Origin: Thermoanaerobaculia bacterium
Lineage (GTDB): Bacteria; Acidobacteriota; Thermoanaerobaculia; Multivoradales; JAGPDF01
Direction of reading: 5' to 3'
Assembly: GCA_019911865.1 (NCBI GenBank)
Contig: JAIOJQ010000328.1
Span: 1-45,792, forward strand
DNA length: 45,792 nt
A program made the translations under genes and the position numbers. Shown piece by piece: positions 13,000 through 27,553 of this stretch (positions within the stretch are counted from its first letter, which is position 1; every line of letters begins with the position of its first letter). The notes under the pieces were generated by a model that was not told where the DNA came from, searched no databases, and saw nothing but the letters and a program-made list of their open reading frames with translations.

Positions 13000-13013
13000 A
13001 TGACGGCCGTCAT
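13000..13013. promoter_or_regulatory. Perfect palindrome ATGAC-GGCC-GTCAT, a putative CRP/FNR-family site
   Basis: Has the 5-4-5 geometry of the FNR box TTGAT-N4-ATCAA and is centred about 60 bp upstream of the cytochrome c-nar operon start. Confidence 0.6.
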
Positions 13014-13199
13014 ATCGACGCGGAAGCACGGGATTCTTGCCGGGCAACGCCGGCTTTCCGGTGCTCGCGGAGGGTTCCGCAAGGAGTTCTTCCGCCGGTC
13101 CGGGGACCGCTCTTCGCAGCTGCGGGACGCGGCCGCAGGCGGCCTCGCCCGGAAGGGCGTCGCCGCGCCCGTTCCCTCCGCCTAGAATCCGCAGCCTCG

Positions 13200-13694
13200 A
13201 TGAAGATCTTCGGGTTCGCCGGCTACTCCGGCAGCGGCAAGACCACCCTGATCGAACGGCTGATTCCGCGCTTTGCCGAACGCGGACTCAGCGTCTCGCT
13301 GATCAAGCACGCTCACCACGCATTCGACCTGGATCGACCCGGCAAGGACTCGTACCGGCTTCGCGAGGCCGGGGCGAGGGAGGTTCTGCTCACTTCGTCT
13401 CACCGCTGGGCGCTGCTGCACGAGCTGCGCGGCGAAGCCGAGCCGTCGCTCGCCGAGCAGGTTCGGCACCTCTCGCCGTGCGACCTGCTGCTGGTCGAGG
13501 GTTTCAAGCATGCGCCGATTCCGAAGCTCGAAGTCCGGCGGGAGGCGGCCGGCGAAAGACTCCTGCATCCCGAAGACCCGTTCATCGTCGCCGTGGCCTC
13601 CGACGAGAGGATCGTGGGCCGGCTGCCTCATTTCGACCTGAACGACGTTGCCGGCATCGAAGCGTTCGTGCTCCGGCATCTGAAGCTCGGTTGA
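13200..13694 (+). CDS. mobB: Molybdopterin-guanine dinucleotide biosynthesis protein B
   Basis: Motifs GYSGSGKTTL, IKHAHH, DRPGKDSYR, DLLLVEGFK. Confidence 0.95.
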   Translation: MKIFGFAGYSGSGKTTLIERLIPRFAERGLSVSLIKHAHHAFDLDRPGKDSYRLREAGAREVLLTSSHRWALLHELRGEAEPSLAEQVRHLSPCDLLLVEGFKHAPIPKLEVRREAAGERLLHPEDPFIVAVASDERIVGRLPHFDLNDVAGIEAFVLRHLKLG

Positions 13695-13832
13695 GCCGGA
13701 GCTCGCTGTTTGCCGCGAATGGTTCCGACGGACGACGAGCGCGAAGTCACCCGCAGTGTCCCGCGCGGCCAGCGAATCCGGCGGCGCGTTCGACCCTCGC
13801 CTCGCCTCTCCCGCGTCCTGTGTCGCGCTGCC

Positions 13833-15158
13833 TCATCGCGGATCCCCGTACGCCCTCGCTAGCCGCTCGACCGGGACACCCAGCGCATAGAGGATCGGCA
13901 GGAAGTTGACGAGCAGAAAGTAGTAGACCGGACGGGTCAGGAAGCGCCGGCCGGAGACCCGAACCCGCGCCGGAACGACGCGGATCTCCCCCTCGCGTGC
14001 GAGCCTGCGCGAGAGCTCGAAATCCTCCATCAGCGGCATCTCGGGGTAGCCGCCGACCCGCTCGAAGACGGCGGCCCGGACGAAGATCGCCTGGTCACCG
14101 TACGGACGGCGGGTGTACCGCGAGCGGATGTCGGCGAGGTGGAGCAGCGGAGCGATCCAGCTCCGGCGGCCGTCGGGCACCGTCCAGGTTCGAAAAGCGC
14201 CCGCGACCACCTCGGGATCGGCGAGGGCTCGAGCGACGGAGTCGCGGGCTTCCGGCGGCAGGCCGACGTCGGCGTGGAGGAAGAGCAGCACGTCGCCGGT
14301 CGCGCAGCGTGCGCCCGCGTTCATCTGCCGTGCACGTCCTCGGGGCGCTTCCAGGACACGCACGCCCGGCACGCTGCGGGCAAGCGCCGCGGTCTCGTCC
14401 CGGCTTCCGCCGTCCACGACGAGAATCTCGTGCCAGCCATCCGCGGCGAGAGTGCGAAGCGCGGACTCGATACGGCCCGCCTCGTCGAGTGCGGGAATCA
14501 CGACGGAGATCCGGGGCGCGCGTGGACAGAGTCGACCGAGCAGGCGCGAGGTCGCGGGCGCGCGCACCGCTCCGCGTTCGATCCGCTGCTGGAGTCTCAC
14601 GAGATCGGCGGGAACGTCGACGTCGAACCAGCCGGGCAGGATTTCGACCGAAAGCCCGCGCTCGAGGAGGCGCTCGCGCGTGCGGCCGAACGTCGAGTCG
14701 GCGCTCCACGGCAGATCCTCGAGCAGGCCGGGCGGGCATCGCCGCAGCGCCAGCAGGTAGAAACCCCCGTCGTCGCAGGGGCCGAGTACCGCGTCGGAGC
14801 GCTCGAGGGCGTCGCGCGCGGCCTCCAGCAGCGCGGCCGGAACTCCGGGCGAATCCGTGCCGACGGCGATCGCGCCGGCCGCCTTGCCCGCGAGCGCTCG
14901 CGCGAAAGCCCGCGCCAGTCGTTCGCCGAGGTCACCTTCTCCTTGCGGCCAGCGGCACGCGGCGCGGGCAGCACCCCACTCGGCGGCATCGGGCTCCGGC
15001 GTAACCAGGACGGGTCGGGCCCAGCGCAGGCTCGAGACGCGGGACCAGGTGTCCTCGAAGAGCGCCGTGGCAAGAGCTGCCGCGCCCTTCGAACCCAGCG
15101 CGGGCGCGAGGCGGGTCTTGGCGACGCCCGGCCGAGGCGGCTTGGCGAAGACGAGCAC
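13833..15158 (-). CDS. Fusion of TIGR04282-like (DUF2064) and TIGR04283-like (GT2) arsenosugar-associated glycosyltransferases
   Basis: N-half: FAKPPRPGVAKTRL, QGEGDLGERL, GTDSP, LGPCDDGGFYL, DVDVPADL. C-half: ISVVIPALDE, VVDGGSRD, GRARQMNAGA, LFLHAD, YGDQAIF, PLMED. Start uncertain (about 15158-15200). Confidence 0.85.
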   Translation of the reverse strand: MLVFAKPPRPGVAKTRLAPALGSKGAAALATALFEDTWSRVSSLRWARPVLVTPEPDAAEWGAARAACRWPQGEGDLGERLARAFARALAGKAAGAIAVGTDSPGVPAALLEAARDALERSDAVLGPCDDGGFYLLALRRCPPGLLEDLPWSADSTFGRTRERLLERGLSVEILPGWFDVDVPADLVRLQQRIERGAVRAPATSRLLGRLCPRAPRISVVIPALDEAGRIESALRTLAADGWHEILVVDGGSRDETAALARSVPGVRVLEAPRGRARQMNAGARCATGDVLLFLHADVGLPPEARDSVARALADPEVVAGAFRTWTVPDGRRSWIAPLLHLADIRSRYTRRPYGDQAIFVRAAVFERVGGYPEMPLMEDFELSRRLAREGEIRVVPARVRVSGRRFLTRPVYYFLLVNFLPILYALGVPVERLARAYGDPR

Positions 15159-15196
15159 GGGAGTCCGTGCCGGCCGCGAGACCTGGAGGACGCGGA

Positions 15197-16219
15197 TCAG
15201 GCGAGCGCTCCCGAGCAGCTCGAGCCCGCGCCGGCGGTGCACGCGAAGCAGTGGCTCGCCGTGGCGATCGCGCTGCCGCCGAGATCCGAGAGCCGATCGA
15301 CGTCCCAGACCGTCGGACGAGAGGGTCCGCCTTCGAGGCGGAGCGGCAGGTCGAGCATCAGGTTGAAGTCGCAGTCGTAAAGCCGTCCCCGCCAGTCGAC
15401 GCTGACCTGCGAGCGGCACATCAGCCCCTCGACGGTCGCCGGGTTGAAGTGGTTGACCAGCAGCGCCTGGTAGTCCTCGGTCTTGCCCAGCCGCGCGAGC
15501 TGCTCGGCGAAGCGGCGGATCGGCATGTTGGTGAGGGTCAGCAGTCTATCGAACTCGATGCCGAAGCGCTCCGCGAGCTCGCGCTTGTAGTCCTCCTCGA
15601 GCTGGCGCTGCGCGGGCGGCAGCGACGGCCCGAGCGGGTTGTATACGAGGTCGAGACGCAGCGCCGAGCCGGCACGGCCGTAGCCGAGCTGGTTCAGTCG
15701 ACGCAGCGCCGCGATCGAGCCGTCGAAGGTGCCGCGTCCCCGCTGGCGGTCGACGTTGCTCTCCGTGTAGCAGGGCAGGCTGGCGACGATCTCGACGCGC
15801 TGGGCGGCGAGAAACTCCGCCAGTCCCTCGAAGCCGGTCTCGCCGAGGATGGTCAGGTTGCAGCGGTCGATGACCCGGCGGCCCAGCTGCCGCGCTCCGG
15901 TGACCAGCCGCTCGAACTGCGGGTTCATCTCGGGCGCGCCGCCGGTCAGGTCGAGCACCTCGACTCCGGGGCTGGCGGCGAGCAGCTCGAGCAGCCGGTC
16001 TGCGACCTCCGCGGAAAGCGACTCGGTCCGCTTCGGCCCGGCCTCGACGTGGCAGTGGTGGCAGGCGAGGTTGCAGAGCCGGCCGACGTTGACCTGCAGG
16101 GTCGTGATCCGGGCGCGCCGCAGCGCGCCGAGGCCGTGCCGCTGCAAGGTCGCGTCGAAGCGAGCGTCGTCGGCGGCGGTGGGCAGGACGGGAAGTCGAG
16201 GGGCGCGATCGGCGAGCAT
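15197..16219 (-). CDS. arsS: Arsenosugar biosynthesis radical SAM protein (TIGR04167-like, DUF3641 C-terminus)
   Basis: Motifs LQVNVGRLCNLACHHCH, DLTGGAPEMNP, IDRCNLT, LMCRSQVSVDW, YDCDFN, HCFACTAGAGSSCSG. Confidence 0.9.
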   Translation of the reverse strand: MLADRAPRLPVLPTAADDARFDATLQRHGLGALRRARITTLQVNVGRLCNLACHHCHVEAGPKRTESLSAEVADRLLELLAASPGVEVLDLTGGAPEMNPQFERLVTGARQLGRRVIDRCNLTILGETGFEGLAEFLAAQRVEIVASLPCYTESNVDRQRGRGTFDGSIAALRRLNQLGYGRAGSALRLDLVYNPLGPSLPPAQRQLEEDYKRELAERFGIEFDRLLTLTNMPIRRFAEQLARLGKTEDYQALLVNHFNPATVEGLMCRSQVSVDWRGRLYDCDFNLMLDLPLRLEGGPSRPTVWDVDRLSDLGGSAIATASHCFACTAGAGSSCSGALA

Positions 16220-16295
16220 GTGCGGCTCCTTCGTTCTCGGATTCAGGGCTGCCGGTTCAGGGCGAGGCCCGCGAGCAGCGCGACGATCGCCATTT

Positions 16296-17450
16296 CTAGC
16301 AGCAGCCGTCCGGGCCGCAGCAGGGCGCGGCGGGCGCGGACGAGTCGTCGTAGTCGCGGCCCTTGGTCTCGCGCGGGTCGCGCCGGAGGCTCCGCGTGCA
16401 GTCGAACGGCCGCGCCGCGCTCGGGTCGATCGGCACGCGGGGCTCGACGAGCTCGACCTGATTCCGGTAGGGCTCGCCGGAGTAGATCTCGAATGTCTTG
16501 GCGCAGACCGCGGCGCGCTCGCCCCGCACCAGCCGGTGGCCGTCGTCGTCGAGGACCTGCTTGAACGGACCCTTGTAGATCACCGCCTGGAAGTGCTCGA
16601 AGCAGGGGCCCTGCTTGCCCTTGAACGCCACGACGGTGAGCGAGCGGAACTCGATGCCCTCGACGGTGCGCCAGGGCTGCGCCGGCCGCTCGAGGATCCG
16701 CAGGCCGTGGAAGCCCGCCTGCTCGAACGCGGCGAGGAACCCCTCCTCGGTGAGCGCGCCCGAAATGCAGCCGCTCCACAACTCGGGGTCGGCCTCGAGG
16801 TGCGCCGGCACCGGCTCGTCGGCGACGATGTCGGAGATCACCGCCCGGCCGCCGTGGCGCAGGACGCGGAAGATCTCGGCGAAGAGGCGTCGCTTGTCGG
16901 CGCCGTCGACCAGGTTGAGAACGCAGTTGGAGACCACGACGTCGACCGACGCGTCCTCGACCAGCGGCGTCTCGTGCCGCAGTCGATCCGCGAGACGCTC
17001 GGCCGCGCGCAGGTCGTCGGCCGAGCGGACCGGTCGCGCGGCGAGCTCCGCGTCGAGCCGGTCGAGATCGAGTGCCAGGTCCTGGATGCGCGCGCGGCGG
17101 AACTCCACGTTGGCGAATCCCAGCCGCTCGGCGACCCGCGGTGCGGCCCGCCGAGCCACCTCGAGCATTTCGGGTGTCATGTCGATGCCGATCACCCGGC
17201 CCGCGGTGCCGACGACCTGGCTGGCGATGAAGCAGATCTTGCCGGTGCCGCTGCCCAGGTCGAGCACGGTCTCGCCCGGGCGCAGGTGGCGCGAGGGGTC
17301 GCCGCAGCCGTAGTCGCGTTCGAGCACTTCGTCCGGAATCACCGCGAGGTAGCGCGGATCGTAGTCGACCGGGCAGCAGAGCTCGGGCTCGCGGGCGGCG
17401 GCGCCGCGCGCGTAGCGCTCGCGGACGCTGGATTCGGTGGCGATGGACAT
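16296..17450 (-). CDS. ArsM-like SAM-dependent methyltransferase
   Basis: Motifs LCCP, DYGCGDP, VLDLGSGTG, VVSNCVLNL, WSGCISGA, Cys-rich tail CCGPDGCC. Directly upstream of arsS. Confidence 0.85.
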   Translation of the reverse strand: MSIATESSVRERYARGAAAREPELCCPVDYDPRYLAVIPDEVLERDYGCGDPSRHLRPGETVLDLGSGTGKICFIASQVVGTAGRVIGIDMTPEMLEVARRAAPRVAERLGFANVEFRRARIQDLALDLDRLDAELAARPVRSADDLRAAERLADRLRHETPLVEDASVDVVVSNCVLNLVDGADKRRLFAEIFRVLRHGGRAVISDIVADEPVPAHLEADPELWSGCISGALTEEGFLAAFEQAGFHGLRILERPAQPWRTVEGIEFRSLTVVAFKGKQGPCFEHFQAVIYKGPFKQVLDDDGHRLVRGERAAVCAKTFEIYSGEPYRNQVELVEPRVPIDPSAARPFDCTRSLRRDPRETKGRDYDDSSAPAAPCCGPDGCC

Positions 17451-17483
17451 GCCTGGAGTCCTCCTTCGATCGGCCCGATCGAG

Positions 17484-17945
17484 TCAGGCCCGTTGCGGGC
17501 TCGGCGTGAGACGCGCGCGACGGCGCGCCAGGAGCGAAAGACCGAACAGTGCGGCCGTGGCGGCGCCGAGACCCGCGACGCCGAGGCGCACGGCCCACCA
17601 GAGCGTCCGGACCTGGATCGGGCGGCTTCCGGCCGCGGCGGCGGGCAGCAGCGACAAAGTCGGATCCTCCTCGGGGTGAACGACCTGCAGATCACTGAAC
17701 AGGAGGACCCTCGTGGGCTCGCTCATCGGGCTGCCGTAGAGGTCGGCGATCGGGTCTCCGGCACTCCAGAGCGAGCGGTTGAGGGTCACGACCGACGGAT
17801 CGTGAGGGGAGATGAGCAGGACCTCGTGCCCCCAGCCGAGATCGGCGAGAGAGGCGGCGAGAGGCAGCAGGAGGGCGGCGACGAGACCGGCCCGGGCCCC
17901 GCGTCGGGCCCAGCGGGCGACTCCGGTCAGGACGTTCGTGGACAT
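17484..17945 (-). CDS. Hypothetical membrane-anchored protein
   Basis: Hydrophobic segments at both ends. Sits within the yceI-methyltransferase operon. Confidence 0.7.
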   Translation of the reverse strand: MSTNVLTGVARWARRGARAGLVAALLLPLAASLADLGWGHEVLLISPHDPSVVTLNRSLWSAGDPIADLYGSPMSEPTRVLLFSDLQVVHPEEDPTLSLLPAAAAGSRPIQVRTLWWAVRLGVAGLGAATAALFGLSLLARRRARLTPSPQRA

Positions 17946-17964
17946 GGCGACGATCGCTCTCGGC

Positions 17965-18576
17965 TCAGCTCGCGGCGTTGACGAAGAGGTTGAGCTTCAC
18001 CTTCCAGGTGTCGCTCACCCGTCCGGCGACCTTCTGCGGCACCGCGAGGCCGTGGTCGGAGAGCTGGACCTCGAAGGGCACCGAGACGCGCAGCCAGTCC
18101 CCTTTACCGAGCCCGGCGGCCTTCGCCGCCTCGGCGGGAATCGGCTTGACCCGGGCGCGGACGGTGATCGGCTTCGTGACGCCGCGGAGAGTGAAGTCGC
18201 CGGCGATCTCCCAGCTGCCGTCCTCGAGCTGGCGCGCGGTGGTCGAGACGAAACGGATCTCCGGGTTCTTCTTCGCGTCGAGCCAGTCGCCCGACTGCAG
18301 GTGCTTGTTGCGCAGCTCGATCCCGGTGTCGAGAGAGGCGACCGGAACCCGCACTTCGACGCTGGCGGTGCCGGCTTCGAGGTCCGCCACGACCTGGCCC
18401 GTGACGGTGTGGGTGCGGCCGAGGATGGTCTCGAAGTCGGTCTCGGATTCGAAGGTGATGTTGGTGTTCTTGTCGTCGCCGCCGGCGGCGAAGGTGCGCT
18501 CGGTGGCGGCAGCGGCGGCGACCTGGAACAGGCCCGCGAGGGCGAGGGCGAGAACGGGCGAACGACGGTGGATCAT
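17965..18576 (-). CDS. YceI-family secreted lipid/polyisoprenoid-binding protein
   Basis: Signal peptide. Motifs VPVASLDTGIELRNKHL, WLDAKKNPEIRF, GDFTLRGVTK. Confidence 0.9.
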   Translation of the reverse strand: MIHRRSPVLALALAGLFQVAAAAATERTFAAGGDDKNTNITFESETDFETILGRTHTVTGQVVADLEAGTASVEVRVPVASLDTGIELRNKHLQSGDWLDAKKNPEIRFVSTTARQLEDGSWEIAGDFTLRGVTKPITVRARVKPIPAEAAKAAGLGKGDWLRVSVPFEVQLSDHGLAVPQKVAGRVSDTWKVKLNLFVNAAS

Positions 18577-18636
18577 GGCGGGTCTCCCTGGGTTGCGCCC
18601 CCGGCCGATCGCCGGTCGGGGGGCGTCAGGGGAATC

Positions 18637-18662
18637 TTTGCCGCTCCCCGCGGAGCGGTTAC
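18637..18662 (-). promoter_or_regulatory. ECF sigma promoter GTAACC-N16-CAAA for the yceI-methyltransferase-arsS-GT operon
   Basis: Minus strand reads GTAACC gctccgcggggagcgg CAAAGA. One of four matching copies. Confidence 0.75.
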
Positions 18663-18674
18663 CGGCCGCTTCGA

Positions 18675-18700
18675 GTAACCTCTTCGCCCGATGAGGCGAA
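18675..18700 (+). promoter_or_regulatory. Autoregulatory ECF promoter GTAACC-N16-CGAA
   Basis: GTAACC tcttcgcccgatgagg CGAAGA immediately before the sigma gene. Matches the recalled Caulobacter SigF consensus. Confidence 0.75.
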
Positions 18701-18701
18701 G

Positions 18702-19265
18702 ATGAGGGGCGAGGTCGACGAGGCCTCGCTCGACGATCTGCCGGAGCTGATGGCCCGCTACCAGGCGGGGGACGAGGCGGCGTTCGAAGAGATCTACGGA
18801 CGGCTGGCGCGTTCGGTGCGCGGCTACCTGAGAACCCTGACCCCGCCGGGAGCGGACGTGGAGGACCTGGTGCAGAACGCGTTTCTCCAGATTCACCGGT
18901 CGCGGCAAACCTACCTGCCGGGCGAGCCGGTGCGCCCCTGGGCCTTCGCCATCGCCCGTCACGTCGGTCTGATGGCGCGGCGGACTTCCGGGCGGCGGGC
19001 CCGCAACGAGGTCCAGCCGTTCGACCAGCTGCCCGAAGTGCCGACCCTGTCGCGCGCCGCCGGTGCCCTCGACCGGATCTCGCTCGGGCGGGCGCTCGGG
19101 ACGCTCGCCGAGCCCGGCCGCGAGGCGGTCTGGCTCCACCACGTCGAGGGGTTCTCGTTCCGCGAGATCGCCGCCGTCCAGGGGATCTCCGAGACCGCGG
19201 CGAAGGTGCGCGCCCATCGCGCCATCGTCGCGCTGCGCGGCGAGCTGAAGGAGGCCGCGGGATGA
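18702..19265 (+). CDS. ECF RNA polymerase sigma factor (SigF/ECF16-like)
   Basis: Motifs LMARYQAGDEAAF, EDLVQNAFLQIH, PWAFAIAR, GFSFREIA...KVRAHRA. True start may be downstream (ATG 18750). Confidence 0.92.
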   Translation: MRGEVDEASLDDLPELMARYQAGDEAAFEEIYGRLARSVRGYLRTLTPPGADVEDLVQNAFLQIHRSRQTYLPGEPVRPWAFAIARHVGLMARRTSGRRARNEVQPFDQLPEVPTLSRAAGALDRISLGRALGTLAEPGREAVWLHHVEGFSFREIAAVQGISETAAKVRAHRAIVALRGELKEAAG

Positions 19266-19939
19266 CCGCGCCCGACCGCGAGCCGGTCCCCGCGGCGCTG
19301 CGCGCCGCCATCCGGCGCGATCTCGCGCCGGTGACCCCGCTGGCGTCGCCGGCGCGACGCGCCCTGCTCCTCGCGCTGCCGGCGCTCGTCGTCCTCTCGA
19401 CGGCGGTCGTCGTGCTGACCCGCGGCGCGGCGAGCCCGGGCGTGAACTCGCTCGCCGGGGGCGGCGTCTCGCTGCTCGAGTGGCTGGCCGGGCTCGCTCT
19501 GCTCTGGTTGGCGCTGCGCGAAGCCGTGCCGGGCCTGGGCGTGGGCGCCGGCCGGGCGCTCGCCGCCCTGTCCGGCGGCATCCTGCTGCAGCTCCTCCTG
19601 GGACTTCTGATCTGGCAGCAGACCGGCGCCGCGCTGAGCGGCCCCGGCGCCCTGGCCGTCGGCAGCCGATGCGCCACGATCGAGGGGGCGATCGGACTGC
19701 CGCACCTGGCGATCGCGACCTGGCTCGCGCTGCGCGCGCTGCCGATCCGGCCGCGCTGGTCGGGCGCCCTCGCGGGAGCGGCGGCCGGACTGCTCGCTGA
19801 CTCGCTCTGGCACCTGGCGTGCGCCCGCAACGACCTCGAGCACCTGCTGGTCTGGCACTTCGGGGCGACCGTGGCGATGACGCTCCTTGGCGCCTTCGCG
19901 GGCTCGTTCTGGCCGCGGGGTGAGGCCGCCAGCGAGTAA
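19262..19939 (+). CDS. NrsF/DUF1109-family membrane anti-sigma factor
   Basis: ATGA-coupled to the sigma gene. About 6 TM helices, REAVPG, Cys in GSRC and WHLAC...HLLVWH. Confidence 0.8.
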   Translation: MTAPDREPVPAALRAAIRRDLAPVTPLASPARRALLLALPALVVLSTAVVVLTRGAASPGVNSLAGGGVSLLEWLAGLALLWLALREAVPGLGVGAGRALAALSGGILLQLLLGLLIWQQTGAALSGPGALAVGSRCATIEGAIGLPHLAIATWLALRALPIRPRWSGALAGAAAGLLADSLWHLACARNDLEHLLVWHFGATVAMTLLGAFAGSFWPRGEAASE

Positions 19940-20504
19940 GAAGAGGGTTGCCGCCATCGAGATCGCTCAGCGGGCCGAAGCCGATCGCGCGCTGGCCGAG
20001 GCCTACCGCCGCGTTGCCGGTCCGGACGGCGATCCGGCTCACATTCTGGCCGTCTCCTCGCCGAATCCCCGGGCGATGGAGGATCACGCGCGCCTCTATC
20101 GCGGCTTGATGTTCGGTGCCTCGCCCCTGTCGCGCAGCGAGCGCGAGCTCGTCGCGACGGTCGTCTCGCGGACCAACGGCTGCCACTACTGAATCGAGCA
20201 CCACGGACGGGCTCTCCGGGCCGAGAGTCACGACGATGCGATGACCGACGCGGTGATGGCGGGAAACCGGGCCGCCGTCCTCGAGGCCCCGCGTCCGCGG
20301 GCGCTGTGCGCCTTCGCCGAGAAGCTGACGCGGGATCCCGGCGCCTGCGGCGAGGACGACCCCGCGCCGCTGCGGGCGCTCGGCCTGTCGGACCGCGCCC
20401 TCCACGACCTCGTGCTGGTGGTCGCCTATTTCAACTTCGTCAACCGTATCGCCTCGGGACTGGAAGTGCAGCTCGAGCCGGGTGAGCCGGCTCGCGAGCG
20501 GTAA
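19920..20504 (+). CDS. AhpD/CMD-family peroxidase-related protein with in-frame TGA at 20190-20192 (probable selenocysteine, CHYU)
   Basis: ORFs 19887-20192 and 20241-20504 share one frame. Readthrough gives LSRSERELVATVVSRTNGCHY-U-IEHHG...FAEKLT...VVAYFNFVNRIASGL, about 194 aa. Start uncertain (GTG 19920). Confidence 0.85.
20210..20229 (+). promoter_or_regulatory. Candidate bacterial SECIS hairpin
   Basis: GGCTCTC-CGGGCC-GAGAGTC forms a 7-bp stem (one G-U pair). The loop has G at its second position and starts 25 nt after the TGA. Confidence 0.55.
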
Positions 20505-20526
20505 CCGTTTCTCCGCTGCCGGCAAA
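20501..20526 (+). promoter_or_regulatory. ECF promoter GTAACC-N16-CAAA upstream of the second CMD gene
   Basis: GTAACC gtttctccgctgccgg CAAAGA, overlapping the upstream stop codon. Confidence 0.7.
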
Positions 20527-20602
20527 GAGTGACTGCGAACGGAAACCGAACCCGTTCGCGTGGCGCCGATTCCGGCGCGCACCCAGACCCGGGAGATCCC
20601 GC

Positions 20603-21172
20603 ATGACCGATTTCCGGATTCACGCTTCAGACTCCGCCCCCGAGGCGTCCCGCATCGCGCTCGCCGGAGCCCGGAGCAAGTACGGCTTCGTCCCCAACCC
20701 GATCGGCATGCTGGCCGAGTCGCCGGCCGCCGTGGCCGGCTACCTCGGCATCGGCGAGCAGTTCGACGAATCTTCGTTCACGCCGGTCGAGCGCCAGGTC
20801 GTGTTGCTCGCCGTCAGCTTCGAGAACGCCTGCGACTACTGCATGGCCGCGCACACGGTCATCGCCGGCATGAGCCGGGTCCCCGCCGCGACGATCGAGG
20901 CCCTGCGCTCCGGCGACCCGCTGCCGGAGGCGCGCCTCGACGCCCTGGCGTGCTTCACCCGCACCGTGGTGCGCGAACGCGGCCGCGTCTGCGAGCCCGA
21001 ACTCGCCGCCTTCCTCGCCGCCGGCTTCACCCGCGCCCAGGTCCTCGAGGTCGTCCTCGGCGTCGCGATGAAGACCTTGAGCAACTACGCCAACCACCTC
21101 GCCCGCACCCCCCTCGACCCGGCGTTCGCCCCGGCCCGCTGGGAGCCGGCGCACCTCGCGCCGGTCGGCTGA
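20603..21172 (+). CDS. Carboxymuconolactone decarboxylase/AhpD-family protein (CxxC)
   Basis: Motifs YGFVPN, AESP, ENACDYCMAAH, KTLSNYANH. GGAG RBS. Confidence 0.9.
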   Translation: MTDFRIHASDSAPEASRIALAGARSKYGFVPNPIGMLAESPAAVAGYLGIGEQFDESSFTPVERQVVLLAVSFENACDYCMAAHTVIAGMSRVPAATIEALRSGDPLPEARLDALACFTRTVVRERGRVCEPELAAFLAAGFTRAQVLEVVLGVAMKTLSNYANHLARTPLDPAFAPARWEPAHLAPVG

Positions 21173-21242
21173 AGACAGGGCCAGCGCCGGCTTCACCCGC
21201 TCTCCGGGTCGCTCGTGCGGCCCGGGGGTACCTTGCCCCTCC

Positions 21243-22700
21243 TCAGTCGCCCCCGGCCGGGACGGCGCTCGCAGCGGCACGGATCTCGTCCAGGATGGCG
21301 TCGAGGTCGGACTCCTCGAGATCGGGATTGACACAGACCAGGCGCAGAACGCGGCGGCCGGCGACCGTGCCGTAGCCGATCTTCAGACGACCCTCGCGGT
21401 CGAGCCAGTCGCAGAGGGCGGCGCTGTCGCGGCCGCGCACCGCGAAGCAGACGTTGATCGAGGGCGGCGGCTCGATCAGCTCGAGCGCGGGATCCGCGGC
21501 GATTTTCGCGGCGGCGAGGCGGGCGAGGGCGAACTGGCGCTGGATGCGCTCGTCCCAGCCGCGATCGCCGAGCCGCAACCAGGCGGCCCAGAGCTTGAGC
21601 GCATCGTTGCGGCGCCCGCACTGGATCGAGCGGTGCCCGGGATTGACGTCGTCTTCGTGCGACTGGAAGAGATACTCGGCAGTCTCGTCGAGGCTGCGGG
21701 TGAGCTCGCCGCGCCGCGCCACCAGGAGCACCGAGCACTGCAGCGGCACGCCCATCATCTTGTGCGGATTCCAGGTGAACGTATCGGCCAGCTCGACGCC
21801 GTCGATCAGCTCGCGCCGCGCGGGGCAGAGCACCACGCTGCCGCCCAGCGCGCCGTCGACGTGCAGCCAGGCGCCGTACTCGCGGGCCAGCGCCGCGAGG
21901 GCGCGAATCGGGTCGAAGGCGCCGCGCACCGTGGTGCCGGCGGTGGCGTTGATCAGCGCCGGCCGCACGCCGCGCGCGCGGTCCTCCGCGAGCTTCTGCG
22001 CCAGGGCGCCGACATCCATCCGGCCGACGTCGTCCGTCGGCACCCGCCGCACACTGTCGCGCCCGAGCCCGAGGATGCCGGCGTTCTTGGGGATCGAGTA
22101 GTGACCCTCCGCCGAGGTGTAGATCGCGAGGCGCTCGCCGCCGAGTCCGCGGTCACGCGACTCGGGGGAGGCGACGTTGCGCGCCAGCAGCAGCGCCACG
22201 AGATTGGCGATCGACCCGCCGGGAGTGAAGCAGCCCTCGGCGTCGGCCAGGCCGGCGTGGCGCGCCATGTGGCGGAGCAGCTCGCGCTCGACCAGTATCT
22301 GGGCGCCGGCGGCCTTGAAGGTGTACATCGACACGTTGGGCACGACGGCGAGCATCTCGGCCGCCATCCCCGCCGGCTCGCGGCCGCCGAAGAGCTGGTT
22401 GACGAAGCGCCAGCTCGAGCTCGACGGCGTCGCGGCCAGCGCCGAGCGCAGGCGCGCCAGGACCGCGGGGGTCGCGAGCCCGTCCGCTCCCAGGCGCAGC
22501 TCGAGCCGGCTCTCGAGCCGGACGGGGTCCCCGTCCCCGGCTTCGGCCGGCGCGTTCTCCTGCGCCACGAGCTCGCGGGCGAGGGCCGGGACCGCAGCCA
22601 GCCACTCTTCGAGCTCGCGGGCACGGCGTTCGCGCCCCGCCTCGGACGGCGCTTCGGACGGAGATTCAGGCGGGTCGGGACGTCGGTCGACGGTGGTCAA
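21243..22700 (-). CDS. Group II PLP-dependent amino-acid decarboxylase (GAD/CSAD-like)
   Basis: Motifs FVNQLFGG, PGGSIAN, HYSI, TAGTTVRGAFDP, WLHVDGALGG, NPHK, IQCGRRND. TTG 22700 follows GAGGAGG. Confidence 0.9.
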   Translation of the reverse strand: MTTVDRRPDPPESPSEAPSEAGRERRARELEEWLAAVPALARELVAQENAPAEAGDGDPVRLESRLELRLGADGLATPAVLARLRSALAATPSSSSWRFVNQLFGGREPAGMAAEMLAVVPNVSMYTFKAAGAQILVERELLRHMARHAGLADAEGCFTPGGSIANLVALLLARNVASPESRDRGLGGERLAIYTSAEGHYSIPKNAGILGLGRDSVRRVPTDDVGRMDVGALAQKLAEDRARGVRPALINATAGTTVRGAFDPIRALAALAREYGAWLHVDGALGGSVVLCPARRELIDGVELADTFTWNPHKMMGVPLQCSVLLVARRGELTRSLDETAEYLFQSHEDDVNPGHRSIQCGRRNDALKLWAAWLRLGDRGWDERIQRQFALARLAAAKIAADPALELIEPPPSINVCFAVRGRDSAALCDWLDREGRLKIGYGTVAGRRVLRLVCVNPDLEESDLDAILDEIRAAASAVPAGGD

Positions 22701-22769
22701 GGCACGCCTCCTCGGAACTCGGACCGCCATCTTACGCGTCGACACCTGCCGCCGGACGTGATCCACCCG

Positions 22770-22795
22770 GTAACCGAATCCGCGGGCGCGGCGAA
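22770..22795 (+). promoter_or_regulatory. ECF promoter GTAACC-N16-CGAA upstream of the DedA-reductase operon
   Basis: GTAACC gaatccgcgggcgcgg CGAAGA, 57 bp before ATG 22853. Confidence 0.75.
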
Positions 22796-22852
22796 GATCC
22801 CGGTGAACGCACCGTTCGCGCACTCCCGGCGGCGAATCGGAGGGAAGCAACC

Positions 22853-23602
22853 ATGGCACTCGAAGTGGATGACCTGACGGCGGATCCGAGGAGCCGGGTT
22901 TCCGTCCGACGGAGTCGGCGATGGCTCCGACCGCTGCTCTTCTTCGTCGTCCTGGCGGCGCTGGCGGTGGCTGCGCCGCTCCTCGGACTCGGCCAACGCC
23001 TCACGGAGCTGCGCGGCTGGATCGAGGGGCTGGGCGCGCTCGGTCCGCTGGTCTTCGCCCTGATCTACTCGATCGCGACCGTGGCGGCGGTGCCGGCTTC
23101 GCTCCTGACGATCGCGGCCGGCGCGATGTTCGGCTCGGGGGTGGGCGTCGCGACCGTGATTCTGGGAGCGACTGCCGGCGCGACGGCGGCTTTCGCGATC
23201 GCGCGCTGGATGGCCCGGGACGCGGTGGCCGGCTGGCTCGCGAAGAACGAGAAGTTCGCGCGGCTGGACGCGATGACCGAGCGTCACGGCGCGATCATCG
23301 TCGCCGTCACCCGGCTGCTGCCGATCTTCCCCTTCAATCTGCTCAACTACGGTTTCGGACTGACGCGGGTCCGCTTCGGCACCTACGTGCTCTGGTCGTT
23401 CCTCTGCATGCTTCCCGGGACGGCGCTCTACGTGGTCGGCGCCGACGCGGTCACCCGCGGCCTCGAGGAGGGGCGGATTCCGTGGGGCCTGATCGCGGTG
23501 CTCGTCGGAGTCCTGGTGCTGCTGCTCCTCGTCGTCCGGCACGCGCGTCGCGTCCTCGCGGCGCGCGAGGCGGCGGCGACGGCGGCCGAGGAGCGAGCAT
23601 GA
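22853..23602 (+). CDS. TVP38/TMEM64 (DedA, SNARE-associated) membrane protein
   Basis: Motifs LTIAAGAMFG, GATAAFAIAR, RLLPIFPFNLLNYGFGLT, MLPGT. Confidence 0.92.
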   Translation: MALEVDDLTADPRSRVSVRRSRRWLRPLLFFVVLAALAVAAPLLGLGQRLTELRGWIEGLGALGPLVFALIYSIATVAAVPASLLTIAAGAMFGSGVGVATVILGATAGATAAFAIARWMARDAVAGWLAKNEKFARLDAMTERHGAIIVAVTRLLPIFPFNLLNYGFGLTRVRFGTYVLWSFLCMLPGTALYVVGADAVTRGLEEGRIPWGLIAVLVGVLVLLLLVVRHARRVLAAREAAATAAEERA

Positions 23603-25140
23603 GCCTCCCGGAGCTGACCTCCTCGCCCCACGACCTCGCGCTCGATTCGTTCGTCCATCCGCCCGACTGGGTCAACCCCCGACCCGCGGCGAAGTACCAC
23701 CTGGTCGTCGTCGGCGCCGGTACCGCGGGTCTGGTCACGGCCGCCGGTGCCGCGGGGCTCGGCGCGCGCGTCGCGCTGGTCGAGCGCCACCGGATGGGCG
23801 GCGACTGCCTCAACGTCGGCTGCGTCCCGTCCAAGGCGGTGCTCGCCAGCGCCCGGGCGGCGGCGGACGTGGCGCGGGCCGCGCAACTCGGGATCAGCGT
23901 GCGCGGGCCGGTGGCGGTCGACTTTCCGGCAGTCATGGAGCGCATGCGGAAGCTGCGCGCGTCGATCGCGCCGCACGACGCCGCGCGCCGGTTCCGCGAC
24001 CTGGGCATCGACGTCTTCCTGGGCGAGGCCTGCTTCCGTTCGGCCGACGAAGTCGAGGTCGGCGGAGCGCGCCTGCGGTTCGCCCGCGCCGTCGTCGCGA
24101 CGGGGGGGCGTCCGGCGGTGCCGCCGATCGCCGGTCTGGTGGAGGCGGGATTCCGCACCAACGAGACGATTTTCAACCTCACCGAGCTGCCGCGGCGTCT
24201 GGCGGTGATCGGCGGCGGGCCGATCGGCTGCGAGCTGGCGCAGGCCTTCAGCCGGCTCGGCGCGCAGGTGACCATCGTCCAGAACCATCCCCGGTTCCTG
24301 CCGCGGGAGGATCGCGACGCCTCCGGGGTACTGCTCGGCGCCTTCCGGGCGTCGGGGCTCGGCGTCCGGCTCGACACCGAGGTCGAACGGGTCGAGACGA
24401 TCGGCGCCGAACGGATCCTCCACTTGAGGCGGAACGGATCGCGCGAGCGGCTCACCGTCGACGAGATCCTGGTCGCGACCGGCCGGCTCCCCAACGTCGC
24501 GGGTCTCGGGCTGGAACGGGCCGGAGTCCGCTTCGGGCCGGAGGGCATCGAGGTCGACGACTTCCTGCGGACGACCAACCGCCGGATCTTCGCCGCCGGC
24601 GACGTCGCCCTGACCCACCGGTTCACCCACGTCGCGGACGCCGCGGCGCGGCTGGTGATCCAGAACGCCCTGTTTCCGCTCAGGCGGAAGTACTCGGCGC
24701 TCGACATCCCGTGGTCGACCTACACCGATCCGGAAATCGCGCACGTGGGGCTCGACGAGCACCAGGCCCGCGAGCGCGGCGAGCGCATCGAGACCGTCAC
24801 GATCCCGTTCGCCGAGGTCGATCGCGCCCGGCTCGAAGGGGAGACGGAGGGCTTCGTCCGCGTCCACGCGGCGGCGAAATCGGGCCGGATCCTCGGCGCC
24901 ACGATCGTCGGCCGCGGCGCCGGCGACCTGATTTCGGAGATCGCCACGGCGATGGCGGGCCGCCTCGCCCTCGGCGCGCTGGGATCGGTGATCCATCCTT
25001 ACCCGACGCGCGCGGAGGCGATCCGCAAGGCCGGCGACGCCTGGAATCGCCGCCGCCTGACGCCGCGCTCGAAGCGCCTGCTCGAAGGGTACCTGTCGCT
25101 GCGCTTCGGCCGCGAGGTTCGGGGACAGGCCACCCGCTAG
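23599..25140 (+). CDS. Class I pyridine nucleotide-disulfide oxidoreductase (mercuric reductase-like, no MerA C-terminal CC)
   Basis: Motifs GAGTAG, GGDCLNVGCVPSK, GGGPIGCE, AAGD, HPYPT. ATGA-coupled to the DedA gene. Confidence 0.9.
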   Translation: MSLPELTSSPHDLALDSFVHPPDWVNPRPAAKYHLVVVGAGTAGLVTAAGAAGLGARVALVERHRMGGDCLNVGCVPSKAVLASARAAADVARAAQLGISVRGPVAVDFPAVMERMRKLRASIAPHDAARRFRDLGIDVFLGEACFRSADEVEVGGARLRFARAVVATGGRPAVPPIAGLVEAGFRTNETIFNLTELPRRLAVIGGGPIGCELAQAFSRLGAQVTIVQNHPRFLPREDRDASGVLLGAFRASGLGVRLDTEVERVETIGAERILHLRRNGSRERLTVDEILVATGRLPNVAGLGLERAGVRFGPEGIEVDDFLRTTNRRIFAAGDVALTHRFTHVADAAARLVIQNALFPLRRKYSALDIPWSTYTDPEIAHVGLDEHQARERGERIETVTIPFAEVDRARLEGETEGFVRVHAAAKSGRILGATIVGRGAGDLISEIATAMAGRLALGALGSVIHPYPTRAEAIRKAGDAWNRRRLTPRSKRLLEGYLSLRFGREVRGQATR

Positions 25141-25152
25141 GATGGGGGCGCG

Positions 25153-27069
25153 ATGCCCAAGCAGTACAGCCATGGCGGACGGGTGAGCTCGCGACCTGGC
25201 GGCGTTGCGGGCGGAGCGCCGGTCGACGAGCGCGCGCCACGCACGCTCCGCCAGCGCGTTTCGGCGCTCGGCAACTTGCCGCCGTTCCTGCGGCTGGTCT
25301 GGGAGATCCACCCCGCCATGGCCGCCGGCACGCTCGCGCTGCGCTTCGTGCGCGCGCTGCTCCCAGTGGCCACGCTCTTCGTCGGCAAACTGATCATCGA
25401 CGAGGTCGTACGGCTCGGCCGGCTCCCGGATCCACCGCCCGACCTCCCGGCCTGGCTCGCGAGCGGACTGGCGCGCACCCTGCTCGTGCTGCTGCTGTGC
25501 GAGCTCGGACTCGCCATCCTCTCCGACCTCTGCGGCCGGCTGGTGTCGCTGTTCGAGGCGTTGCTCGCCGAGCGGTTCTCGAACACCACGAGCGTGCGGC
25601 TGATGGAGCACGCGGCGACCCTCGACCTCGAGGACTTCGAGGACAGCGAGGTCCAGGACCAGCTCGAGCGGGCGCGCCGGCAGGCCGCCGGTCGCTCCAG
25701 CCTGCTCGGCCAGCTGTTCGGCCAGGCGCAGGACGTGGTGACGATCGTGGCGTTCGCCGCCGGGCTGGTGTTCTACGCCCCCTGGCTGATCGCCCTGCTG
25801 GTGGTCGCCGTGGTGCCCGCTTTCCTCGGCGAGACCCACTTCAACGCCCAGGGGTACGAGATCGCCTGGCGGCGGACGCCGGCGCGGCGCGAGCTCGACT
25901 ATCTGCGGGTGACCGGCGCCAGCGTCGAGACCGCCAAGGAGGTGAAGATCTTCGGCCTCGAGGCGTTCCTGATCGAGCGTTACCGGGCGCTCGCCGACGA
26001 CCTCTACGCGACCAACCGCGCGCTCGCCGTGCGGCGCGCCGGGTGGGGCGGGCTGTTCACCGCCGCGGGCACGCTCGGCTACTACGGCGCCTACGGCTTC
26101 ATCGCCTGGCGCACGCTGTCCGGCGAGCTGACGATCGGCGACCTGACCTTCCTGTCGGGATCGTTCCGCCGCCTGCGCAACCTGCTCGAGGGGCTGCTGA
26201 TCGGCTTCTCGCAGGTCGCCGGCCAGGCGCTCTACCTCGACGACCTGTTCTCGTTCTTCGAGCTCCAGCCCGAAATCGTCTCGCCAACCGACGCGGCGCC
26301 GTTCCCGAGCCCGATCCGCACCGGCTTCGTCTTCGAGGACGTCGGCTTCCGCTACCCCGGCGCCGAGCGCTGGGCGGTGCGCCACCTCTCGTTCACGCTC
26401 CGGGCGGGAGAAGTGCTGGCGCTGGTGGGCGAGAACGGTGCCGGAAAAACGACCCTGGTCAAGCTCCTGGCGCGACTCTACGACCCCGACGAGGGCCGCA
26501 TTCTGCTCGACGGGCGCGACCTCAGGGAGTACGACCTGGCGGCAGTGCGCGCGCGGGTCGGGGTCATCTTCCAGGACTTCGTGCACTACCATCTGACCGC
26601 CGCCGAGAACATCGCGGTCGGCCGCATCGAAGCGCGCGACGATCGCGCGCGGATCGAAGCCGCGGCCGAGCAGAGTCTCGCGGCCGAGGTGATCGCCAGG
26701 CTTCCCGAGGGGTACGACCAGCTGATCGGCAGACGCTTCAAGAAGGGAGTCGAACTCTCGGGCGGCGAGTGGCAGAAGATCGCCATCGCGCGGGCCTACA
26801 TGCGTGACGCCGACCTGCTCATCCTCGACGAGCCGACCGCGGCACTCGACGCGCGTGCCGAGTTCGAAGTCTTCCGGCGCTTCGCCGAGCTGTCGCACGG
26901 CAAGACCGCCGTGCTCATCTCCCACCGATTTTCGACCGTGCGCCGCGCCGATCGCATCCTCGTGCTCGCCGGCGGCGAGATCGAGGCCGCCGGCACCCAC
27001 GACGAGCTCGTCGCCCAGGACGGCCGCTACGCCGAGCTGTTCGACCTCCAGGCCGCGGGCTTCCGGTAG
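25153..27069 (+). CDS. ABC exporter, fused permease/ATP-binding protein
   Basis: TM domain, then GENGAGKTT, LSGGEWQK, LILDEPT, ISHRFST. Confidence 0.95.
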   Translation: MPKQYSHGGRVSSRPGGVAGGAPVDERAPRTLRQRVSALGNLPPFLRLVWEIHPAMAAGTLALRFVRALLPVATLFVGKLIIDEVVRLGRLPDPPPDLPAWLASGLARTLLVLLLCELGLAILSDLCGRLVSLFEALLAERFSNTTSVRLMEHAATLDLEDFEDSEVQDQLERARRQAAGRSSLLGQLFGQAQDVVTIVAFAAGLVFYAPWLIALLVVAVVPAFLGETHFNAQGYEIAWRRTPARRELDYLRVTGASVETAKEVKIFGLEAFLIERYRALADDLYATNRALAVRRAGWGGLFTAAGTLGYYGAYGFIAWRTLSGELTIGDLTFLSGSFRRLRNLLEGLLIGFSQVAGQALYLDDLFSFFELQPEIVSPTDAAPFPSPIRTGFVFEDVGFRYPGAERWAVRHLSFTLRAGEVLALVGENGAGKTTLVKLLARLYDPDEGRILLDGRDLREYDLAAVRARVGVIFQDFVHYHLTAAENIAVGRIEARDDRARIEAAAEQSLAAEVIARLPEGYDQLIGRRFKKGVELSGGEWQKIAIARAYMRDADLLILDEPTAALDARAEFEVFRRFAELSHGKTAVLISHRFSTVRRADRILVLAGGEIEAAGTHDELVAQDGRYAELFDLQAAGFR

Positions 27070-27199
27070 GCGGAATGATGGAAAGGCGGTCCACAGCGCA
27101 CCGCGGCCGGGACCTCGTCGCGTATTGCGGCTCGATGCGCCGCAGCGGATCCCCGGCAGATCCCGATCCCTCACGCAGCCACTCCCAGCGAGGACGCCG

Positions 27200-27553
27200 A
27201 TGAACGAGATCCTGATCCTCCTCAACGACCCGCCCTACGGAAGCGAGCGGTCCTACAACGGCCTGCGCCTGGCCCTCGCGCTGGCCAGAGCGGAGCCCGA
27301 GGCGCGCGTCCACGTCTTCCTGATGGCCGACGCGGTGCTCTGCGGCAAGTCCGGCCAGCAGACTCCCAACGGGTACTACAACCTGGAACGCATGCTGCGG
27401 GCGGTGCTTCGCCACGGCGACGTGCTGCTCTGCGGCAGCTGCATGGATGCGCGCGGACTCTCCGACGCGGAGCTGGTCGAGGGCGCGCGGCGGAGCACGA
27501 TGGAAGAACTCGCGCGGCGAACGCTCGACGCCGGCAAGGTGCTGGTGTTCTGA
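27200..27553 (+). CDS. DsrE/YchN-family protein
   Basis: Motifs LNDPPYGSERSYNGLRLA, FLMADAV, CGSCMDARG, KVLVF. GAGG RBS. Confidence 0.9.
   Translation: MNEILILLNDPPYGSERSYNGLRLALALARAEPEARVHVFLMADAVLCGKSGQQTPNGYYNLERMLRAVLRHGDVLLCGSCMDARGLSDAELVEGARRSTMEELARRTLDAGKVLVF

Follow-up and report, generated by a model that had tools for sequence, protein, structure and literature searches.

The window analyzed here is a stretch of 45,792 nucleotides from a Thermoanaerobaculia bacterium of the phylum Acidobacteriota (contig JAIOJQ010000328.1 of assembly GCA_019911865.1). Within 4.2 kb of this window, the sequence GTAACC-N15-GCRAAGA occurs four times, and one of its copies precedes a pair of genes encoding an extracytoplasmic function (ECF) sigma factor and an NrsF-type membrane anti-sigma protein. 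Judging from the sequence, we consider it likely that the four sites are promoters of one regulon, controlled by this sigma factor, which would be of the ECF16 (SigF/NrsF) type. The genes predicted to belong to this regulon include arsS, which encodes a radical S-adenosylmethionine (SAM) protein, as well as a gene for an ArsM-like methyltransferase.

Predicted promoter sites, sigma factor and anti-sigma

The regulatory features are listed below, where positions are those of the window.

18635..18662, minus strand: predicted ECF16-type promoter of the yceI unit, GTAACC-N15-GCAAAGA, with its -35 box at 18657-18662
18675..18702, plus strand: predicted ECF16-type promoter of sigma-nrsF, GTAACC-N15-GCGAAGA
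18750..19265, plus strand: gene of the ECF sigma factor (Sigma70_r2 and Sigma70_r4_2)
19262..19939, plus strand: gene of the NrsF-type membrane anti-sigma (PF06532, 49.7 bits, cut-off 26.8)
20501..20528, plus strand: predicted ECF16-type promoter of the CMD gene, with a -35 box that shares bases with the TAA stop codon of the preceding AhpD gene
22770..22797, plus strand: predicted ECF16-type promoter of dedA and the gene of a flavin adenine dinucleotide (FAD)-dependent oxidoreductase

Four units would be transcribed from these sites. The first comprises yceI and genes for a 153-amino-acid membrane protein (hereafter hyp153), the ArsM-like methyltransferase, ArsS and a fused glycosyltransferase. 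The second comprises the sigma gene, nrsF and a gene for an AhpD-like protein that probably contains selenocysteine, the third a gene for a CMD/AhpD-like protein, and the fourth dedA and the gene of the FAD-dependent disulfide oxidoreductase. These gene contents had been proposed in a preliminary description of this DNA, and family searches confirmed them. The same description reported four copies of the motif, each properly oriented ahead of a unit. All of these copies were located, and they end 47-74 nt from start codons, i.e., 58 nt from the ATG of yceI (18576), 47 nt from that of the sigma gene (18750), 74 nt from that of the CMD gene (20603) and 55 nt from that of dedA (22853). A Shine-Dalgarno-like GGAG lies between each motif and its start codon. 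All four sites are outside the inferred coding starts, and their sole overlap with coding sequence is that of the CMD -35 box with the AhpD stop. At two of the four sites, CAAA replaces CGAA. The copy ahead of sigma-nrsF implies autoregulation, if it functions as predicted.

The pattern is not expected by chance, as it has no match in 100 dinucleotide-preserving shuffles of the window. The hexamer GTAACC occurs eight times in the window, where 3.2 occurrences are expected, and only four of these have a -10 box; the earlier statement that the remaining hexamers lack this element therefore stands. A genome-wide scan, which had been suggested as a check, was conducted on the whole assembly (G000; 3,764,310 bases in 458 contigs, with 71% G+C, in which the window is contig C166). 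The hexamer GTAACC occurs 341 times in the assembly. For the strict pattern, for GTAACC-N15-GCRAA and for GTAACC-N16-CRAA alike, the only matches are the four sites of the window. When the spacer was relaxed to N15-17, there were 9 genome-wide matches with CGAA (2 in the window) and 12 with CRAA (4 in the window). We also scanned for other signals. No sigma-70-like promoter was found in 13500-25600, and no terminator-like site was found within the unit from yceI to the glycosyltransferase gene. A single terminator-like site lies inside dedA on the opposite strand, which is fewer than in shuffles. The window has no Rfam family at the gathering threshold and no ARAGORN match.

The motif closely resembles known promoters. 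In Caulobacter, according to Kohler et al. 2012, the SigF site is GTAACC-N16-CGAA, and residues C131 and C181 of NrsF keep SigF inactive. For ECF16 in general, the Brucella melitensis paper gives the consensus (T/C)GTAAC-N17-CGAA with a -10 box of GCGAAA, and conserved cysteines C129/C179; sites of this consensus were mapped by 5'-RACE (rapid amplification of cDNA ends) and primer extension in other species. The likeness to Caulobacter SigF that had been pointed out before is thus borne out, in that the motif of the window is the published ECF16 consensus.

The sigma factor has only regions 2 and 4. Its main domain matches are PF04542 and PF08281, and PF04545 (region 4) was also matched. Translation likely starts at ATG 18750, which is preceded by GGAG; the protein then begins M-A-R-Y-Q, and an M-x-RYQ start is kept in relatives. 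The start of the longest open reading frame (ORF), ATG 18702, falls inside the -10 box and was rejected. The start of Bradyrhizobium japonicum ecfF was likewise corrected to a distal start codon, by experiment. In 5 of 5 other loci, homologous sigma factors are paired with NrsF.

In the window, nrsF lies directly downstream of the sigma gene, with an overlap of 4 nt. Residues C137 and C187 are the sole cysteines of the predicted protein, are 50 residues apart, and are invariant in an alignment of five NrsF homologues with identity down to 37%. The anti-sigma had previously been taken for an NrsF protein, which agrees with the Pfam match and the presence of both conserved cysteines. Among control genomes, PF06532 matches only Caulobacter.

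Conservation of the probable regulon in relatives

In a search of 41 genomes (G000 and 40 relatives), NrsF was present in 6. Its identity to the protein of the window is 86% in G015 and 85% in G024, which represent two other genera, 54% in G008, which is of the same genus, and 36% in G031 and G017. There is no NrsF match in 12 of the 13 other genomes of the same genus. In a broader sample, NrsF was over the cut-off in 35 of 301 Acidobacteriota genomes. G015 and G024 have a common gene order, namely glycosyltransferase-ArsS-methyltransferase-hyp153-YceI, divergent from sigma-NrsF-...-SecAhpD-CMD, and then a decarboxylase on the opposite strand.

The motif recurs in these relatives. Genome-wide, GTAACC-N15-GCRAA has 7 matches in G015, 6 in G024 and 6 in G008, as compared with 1 each for a reversed-pattern control. 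The matches are clustered: 6 of the 7 in G015, a genome of 4.5 Mb, fall in a 24.4-kb region that surrounds the sigma gene, 5 of the 6 in G024 are on one contig, and 5 of the 6 in G008 are within 22.2 kb. We determined which genes the motif precedes in G000, G015, G024, G008 and L041, a locus of a metagenome-assembled genome. It is ahead of yceI-hyp153 in 5 of 5 genomes, and ahead of sigma-nrsF also in 5 of 5. Exact copies precede dedA-oxidoreductase in G000, G015 and G024. The CMD promoter of G015 has N14 spacing. Additional genes that follow a motif encode a DUF3187 protein (G015, G024 and G008), an LCAT-like hydrolase (G015 and G024) and, behind an exact motif in G015, a MerT homologue (L035 13474-13850; PF02411, 71 bits). 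Neither the MerT-like gene nor the DUF3187-like gene of G000 is preceded by the motif. The former, on contig C283, follows the gene of a putative metal-sensing repressor, as judged by reading of the sequence. A thioredoxin-reductase-like gene has its own site in L041, and is inside the sigma operon in G015 and probably also, in the corresponding 1.2-kb stretch, in G024.

Two of the loci differ in their arrangement. In L041, yceI-hyp153-arsS are contiguous behind one motif. The locus of G008 is rearranged. One of its sites is followed, after 141 nt, by an FAD oxidoreductase gene, and an exact motif stands separately before the ArsM-like gene, at a distance of 24 nt from the longest ORF of that gene (L009 10959-14090). 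This ArsM-like gene is followed by genes for a different, 308-aa radical SAM protein, with weak Rv1681-like and ArsS N-terminal matches, and for a 328-aa protein of no family; a pair of genes for ArsR and a canonical ArsM is located 4 kb farther along.

When 23 sites from the retrieved loci are compared, both boxes prove to be conserved, unlike the spacer between them. Conservation extends to bases that the search pattern does not impose, i.e., a G before GC and an A two positions after AA. Because the boxes and these additional bases are conserved while the spacer is variable, the sites behave like promoters, and not like a repeat.

It is important to consider several observations that weigh against an ECF16 regulon of the extent proposed here. 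The best NCBIfam match of the sigma factor, NF009188, scores 96.1 bits and is below its cut-off of 250, and the ECF16 assignment was made without comparing the sigma sequence to reference ECF16 proteins. A Kyte-Doolittle scan, which is a crude method, yields four NrsF segments of at least 1.6, and not six; Ala/Gly-rich stretches at about 141-160 and about 165-185, which could be helices by eye, scored below the threshold. When one mismatch is allowed in the -35 box, there are 9 further candidates in the genome outside the window. The earlier characterization of the regulon as self-contained holds for the assembled part of the genome; completeness is rated at 92.6% and contamination at 6.2%, and more sites are possible beyond this part. 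Some sites in relatives are also imperfect or absent. The -10 box takes the variant form GCCAAT in the L041 sigma promoter and, behind an exact -35 box, the variant form ACCAAG in the G008 dedA promoter, and there is no recognizable motif ahead of the CMD orthologue of G024. In the two genomes with the most divergent NrsF, G017 has 1 match (control 0) and G031 has 3 (control 4), with none on the sigma contig.

Comparison by blastn to the G015 and G024 loci detects homology only in 13833-22655 and 22768-25110, at 78-87% identity, and the ends of these blocks coincide with the ends of regulon units. Homology to these genomes stops at the unit borders, and synteny does not extend into the flanks. 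Over the 20 kb that follow, the window has only patchy matches of 63-73% anywhere in G015, G024 and G008, and a stretch of 847 bases is 90% identical in G003. The block borders, along with the patchy distribution of the locus, suggest that a cassette was transferred between genera; alternatively, it is possible that the contig was mis-binned.

Genes in and around the four units

The genes of the units, with the one interposed gene and a spacer of interest, are as follows.

17965..18576, minus strand: periplasmic protein of the YceI family, encoded at the head of the divergent unit (PF04264, 102.2 bits)
17484..17945, minus strand: conserved 153-aa protein hyp153, with two hydrophobic segments and no known family
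16296..17450, minus strand: ArsM-like SAM methyltransferase, 384 aa, whose C-terminal tail is CCGPDGCC
16220..16295, minus strand: 76-nt spacer between the methyltransferase gene and arsS, the site of a PHO4-family transporter gene in relatives
15197..16219, minus strand: ArsS-family radical SAM protein (TIGR04167, 440.8 bits, cut-off 300)
13833..15158, minus strand: fused DUF2064 and GT2 "arsenosugar biosynthesis glycosyltransferase" (TIGR04283 and TIGR04282), last gene of the unit
19920..20504, plus strand: AhpD/CMD-family peroxidase-related protein (TIGR01926, 135 bits, cut-off 81.8)
20603..21172, plus strand: CMD/AhpD-family protein with CxxC (PF02627, 30.4 bits, cut-off 23)
21243..22730, minus strand: pyridoxal phosphate-dependent decarboxylase, between the CMD gene and dedA (PF00282, 236.4 bits)
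22853..23602, plus strand: DedA/VTT-domain membrane protein (PF09335, 94.3 bits), with seven hydrophobic segments
23599..25140, plus strand: class I FAD-dependent pyridine nucleotide-disulfide oxidoreductase (NF004991, 741.1 bits, cut-off 620)

In the yceI unit, the YceI protein has an N-terminal hydrophobic segment. The hyp153 protein has no Pfam or NCBIfam match, and an Atlas search retrieved only unnamed hypothetical clusters; its orthologues are directly after yceI in 4 of 4 other genomes. ArsS has a CNLACHHC cluster motif (CX3CX2C) and a Cys-rich DUF3641 C-terminus (PF12345, 178.9 bits), uses Cys rather than Sec, and is the sole TIGR04167 copy above the cut-off in the genome. The glycosyltransferase fusion scores above the cut-offs of both TIGR04283 (211.3 bits, cut-off 182) and TIGR04282 (164.6 bits, cut-off 134), and its Pfam matches are DUF2064 and Glycos_transf_2. 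Its start is likely GTG 15158; the longest ORF, extending to 15419, would overlap arsS.

The best family match of the methyltransferase is NF040538 (arsinothricin-pathway ArsM), at 329.1 bits and below the cut-off of 500, and its score for NF038099 (arsenosugar-pathway ArsM) is 122.7 bits, below the cut-off of 400. We identified no ArsL-type partner for it. In arsenic methyltransferases, C72, C174 and C224 bind As(III). In a HMMER alignment with the solved arsenic methyltransferase 4kw7, YGCG, SNC and GEC/SGC are aligned, such that the protein in the window has cysteines equivalent to these three residues. Fusions of ArsM to an AhpD domain are represented among the NCBIfam models; one such model (NF041537) was matched in the search of the window, and these models link the AhpD/CMD genes to the same theme as ArsM.

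Between the methyltransferase gene and arsS, G015 has a PHO4-type ORF (L007 5891-6980). A blastn gap suggests that a PHO4 gene is also present in G024, and G008 has one within its yceI unit. In the window, the end of the ORF at 16243-17598 resembles the first and last residues of the PHO4 transporter, and the blastn blocks break at the spacer. The 76-nt spacer therefore looks like the clean deletion scar of a PHO4-family transporter gene.

The AhpD-like gene has an in-frame TGA at 20190-20192, within a CxxU context (NGCHY-TGA). The TGA is also present in G015 and G024, and four more remote homologues have Cys at the aligned position. The genome encodes tRNA-SeC, SelA, SelB and two SelD genes. 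The AhpD-like protein is thus a probable selenoprotein. A hairpin predicted downstream of the TGA, where a SECIS element would be expected, has -17.5 kcal/mol and is no better than those of shuffles (z = -0.32). The second SelD copy (G000:C447:2560-3480) itself has one in-frame TGA, and likely encodes a selenocysteine-containing SelD. The AhpD-like gene probably starts at GTG 19920, overlapping the end of nrsF, and this overlap makes co-transcription with sigma-nrsF likely. The CMD protein scores 26.9 bits for TIGR00778, just below the cut-off of 27.8.

The decarboxylase is probably outside the regulon. It is a conserved neighbor in 5 of 5 genomes (syntenic in G015, G024, G008 and L041), and is never preceded by the motif. 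Its best family match is diaminobutyrate decarboxylase-like, far below the cut-off. The oxidoreductase of the fourth unit is MerA-like; it scores 376.4 bits for TIGR02053 (below the MerA cut-off of 454) and has a CLNVGC redox disulfide. The flanks of the regulon encode a cytochrome c protein, MobB, an MsbA-like ATP-binding cassette (ABC) exporter and a DsrE-like protein (12056-12946, 13200-13694, 25153-27069 and 26804-27553). The exporter gene begins 12 nt past the oxidoreductase gene, in an arrangement that is not kept in G015 and G024.

We examined 4 of 24 RNA-labelled sequencing runs as assembled contigs, which do not show transcript starts, strand or level. Runs X1 and X6 are probably DNA, and X2 has contig boundaries near-identical to those of X1 and even cover over all genes; transcription is therefore not shown by any of the three. 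A metatranscriptome, X14, contains five short contigs with depths of 2.6-5.3, which correspond to the methyltransferase gene, its junction with hyp153, yceI, nrsF and the nrsF/AhpD junction. Another X14 contig, with a depth of 272 and an adapter-like end, covers 13000-14287, i.e., the start of the cytochrome c gene, mobB and the 3' part of the glycosyltransferase gene; there is no Rfam family or tRNA in this region.

Proposed mechanism, alternatives and implications

The genes of the regulon can be compared with the neighbors of arsS elsewhere. Among 79 ArsS loci from many phyla, an ArsM-like gene is within 3 kb in 33, an FAD oxidoreductase in 31 and DedA in 24. NrsF is within 10 kb of ArsS in 3 of the 79 loci, of which two seem to be the G015 and G024 loci, counted once. 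When the set is limited to 52 loci that extend 3 kb or more to either side, the counts within 3 kb are 24 for the methyltransferase, 24 for the FAD oxidoreductase and 19 for DedA; NrsF is found in 1. Genes for DedA with an FAD oxidoreductase and for ArsM-like proteins thus adjoin ArsS in many phyla. An adjacent NrsF is confined to this clade, and in other phyla these partners of ArsS are encoded beside it in the absence of this sigma factor. In the window, the dedA-oxidoreductase unit is 6.5 kb from arsS, to which it is connected by the common promoter motif, and elsewhere it is a usual neighbor of ArsS. This pattern of neighbors suggests that the regulon gathers one functional module.

A different ECF sigma factor occurs in 10 of the 79 loci (Myxococcota-type: L068, L072-L074, L081, L093, L094, L096, L101 and L111). 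These sigma factors are orthologous, with 55-100% mutual identity, and are encoded 1-5 kb from ArsS on the opposite strand, following the FAD oxidoreductase gene wherever that gene occurs. One such locus that we read encodes a zinc-finger-type anti-sigma. A simple box-pair search of the Myxococcota-type loci detected no motif common to the sigma-upstream and arsS-upstream regions.

The preliminary description saw no ArsR, ArsC or Acr3 in the window, and our family searches likewise detected none on its contig; of the six HTH_5 matches of the genome, none is on this contig. Such genes are located elsewhere in the genome. Contig C12 (about 590-4000) encodes an ArsR-type helix-turn-helix (HTH) protein, a permease, a small thioredoxin-like protein, an ArsC-like protein (below the cut-off) and Acr3 (366 bits, above the cut-off). 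On contig C18 (33-1168), the gene of a canonical ArsM (299.7 bits) contains a single in-frame TGA and is next to an ArsR-type HTH gene; this ArsM is possibly a selenoprotein. The placement of ArsR, ArsC, Acr3 and canonical ArsM on other contigs suggests that the ArsS module is regulated apart from ArsR circuits.

The published ECF16 systems share the switch of the window and differ in its output. The Caulobacter system has the same promoter, a sigma gene followed by that of an NrsF with two Cys 50 residues apart, a small autoregulated regulon and a divergent target operon, according to the portion of its description available to us. The Caulobacter targets in that portion are CC3254-3257, CC2905-2907 and a YedY-type sulfite oxidase subunit, with no ArsS, ArsM-like, AhpD/CMD or DedA protein seen among them; full ECF16 regulon lists might still include YceI, CMD or DedA-type targets. 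Caulobacter belongs to the Proteobacteria, whereas the present host belongs to the Acidobacteriota. The systems of B. japonicum (EcfF-OsrA), Azospira suillum (SigF-NrsF) and Brucella (BcrS-AbcS) also resemble that of the window in promoter type, in C129/C179 and in an adjoining or divergent target operon. Their outputs are mainly methionine sulfoxide reductases and a methionine-rich peptide, whereas no Msr or YedY gene was seen in the regulon of the window. The inducers reported for ECF16 are diverse. Caulobacter SigF is induced by Cr and Cd, but not by H2O2, tert-butyl hydroperoxide (tBOOH), paraquat or diamide, and the NrsF cysteines are needed for this Cr and Cd response, while EcfF of B. 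japonicum is induced by H2O2, and C129 and C179 are the only cysteines of its OsrA. ECF16 inducers are chlorite or HOCl in A. suillum and B. melitensis, and RpoE7 of S. meliloti does not respond to H2O2, Cd or chromate.

Two kinds of arsenic systems are also relevant. The cyanobacterial arsenosugar pathway consists of ArsM and ArsS. The locus in the window resembles it in having an ArsS above the cut-off, an adjacent ArsM-type gene and both "arsenosugar" transferase families. However, the methyltransferase in the window fails both curated ArsM models and is nearer to the arsinothricin ArsM, the host is not a phototroph, and control would be by an ECF sigma factor. ArsR-controlled ars operons, which are also present in this genome, are similar in being regulated responses to a toxic metalloid. 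By contrast, the regulator in the window would act positively through promoter recognition, without ArsR, and with a membrane anti-sigma whose Cys residues, by homology, face outward. Beyond the cyanobacteria, no regulator of ArsS-type genes is known to us, and a literature search found no publication joining arsenosugar, ECF and sigma factor. As a switch, the pair is of the usual ECF16 kind. Its novelty lies in the host phylum and in the output, which comprises ArsS-type genes, a probable selenoprotein of the AhpD type, and DedA together with the MerA-like oxidoreductase.

The sequence itself shows how unique the motif is, where it lies, that it is conserved, and to which families the genes belong. 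Recognition of the sites by the sigma factor, joint transcription within each unit, sensing, inducer and chemistry are parts of a mechanism that we infer, as follows. By homology, the NrsF membrane protein would keep the sigma factor inactive. A soft metal(loid) or an oxidant might then modify C137/C187, such that the sigma factor is released. The released sigma factor, together with RNA polymerase, would initiate at GTAACC-N15-GCRAAGA, and the four units would be transcribed. The output would couple metalloid methylation and radical-SAM chemistry with thiol/redox enzymes. Arsenite is thiol-reactive, and As(III) binds thiol pairs. Because arsenite itself has this property, ECF control does not argue against a role in arsenic metabolism, and arsenite is a plausible inducer. 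The published ECF16 inducers differ between species, and the earlier proposal that the ArsS pathway answers a thiol-reactive stress signal and may not be arsenic-specific is a hypothesis.

Other explanations of these observations must be weighed. It is very improbable that the motifs represent a short repeat present in several copies, or that a different DNA-binding protein uses them as its operator, since only the boxes are conserved and the 15-nt spacers vary between sites and genomes, the sites face a start codon 47-74 nt away with GGAG following, and their sequence is a consensus for which transcription starts were mapped in other species. A somewhat stronger alternative, which we nonetheless consider improbable, is that only yceI-hyp153 and sigma-nrsF use these promoters, and that the genes for the ArsM-like protein, ArsS and the glycosyltransferase are transcribed from an internal promoter, outside the stress response. 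The gaps of 33 nt between hyp153 and the methyltransferase gene and of 76 nt before arsS, the latter being the apparent deletion scar, could accommodate this idea, and in G008 the yceI unit lacks both the methyltransferase and ArsS. Yet the ArsM-like gene of G008 has a motif of its own, yceI-hyp153-arsS in L041 are behind one motif, and neither a sigma-70-like promoter nor a terminator-like site was found in the unit. Moreover, dedA-oxidoreductase, a common neighbor of ArsS elsewhere, shares the motif.

A further possibility concerns the signal rather than the promoters: the system might be arsenic-specific, with arsenite binding the NrsF cysteines as the natural inducer, so that NrsF would be an envelope-side sensor parallel to the ArsR circuits. 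We regard this as rather unlikely, but as considerably more probable than the preceding alternatives. It is favored by the equivalents of C72, C174 and C224 that the methyltransferase keeps, by the scores of ArsS, TIGR04282 and TIGR04283 above their cut-offs, by the affinity of As(III) for thiol pairs and by the need for NrsF cysteines in the Cr and Cd response of Caulobacter. On the other hand, no ArsR, ArsC or Acr3 is linked to the locus, these being on C12 and C18 with canonical ArsM; the methyltransferase is below both curated ArsM cut-offs; the regulon of G015 includes a MerT homologue; the methyltransferase of G008 is paired with a different radical SAM protein; and published ECF16 inducers are diverse.

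We also offer a broader hypothesis, which is tentative. ArsS, ArsM-like, DedA, MerA-like oxidoreductase and AhpD/CMD proteins may form one conserved cross-phylum module, which in this clade of Thermoanaerobaculia would have become a transferable cassette with its own ECF16 sigma factor, sensor and promoters. The module might turn a soft metalloid (arsenic, or perhaps selenium or tellurium) into organic form while protecting thiols. Arsenosugar-type chemistry would then be an inducible defense against envelope stress, signaled by periplasm-facing NrsF cysteines and independent of ArsR.

If the ECF16 regulon is as predicted, then one sigma factor with four short, unique promoters would provide a simple handle on the ArsS pathway. 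The regulon also points to likely partners of this pathway, namely DedA, the MerA-like oxidoreductase, AhpD/CMD, the 153-aa membrane protein and YceI, and the gene neighborhoods in other phyla are independent support for this link. Finally, ECF16 systems, which have been published as proteobacterial, would extend to the Acidobacteriota.

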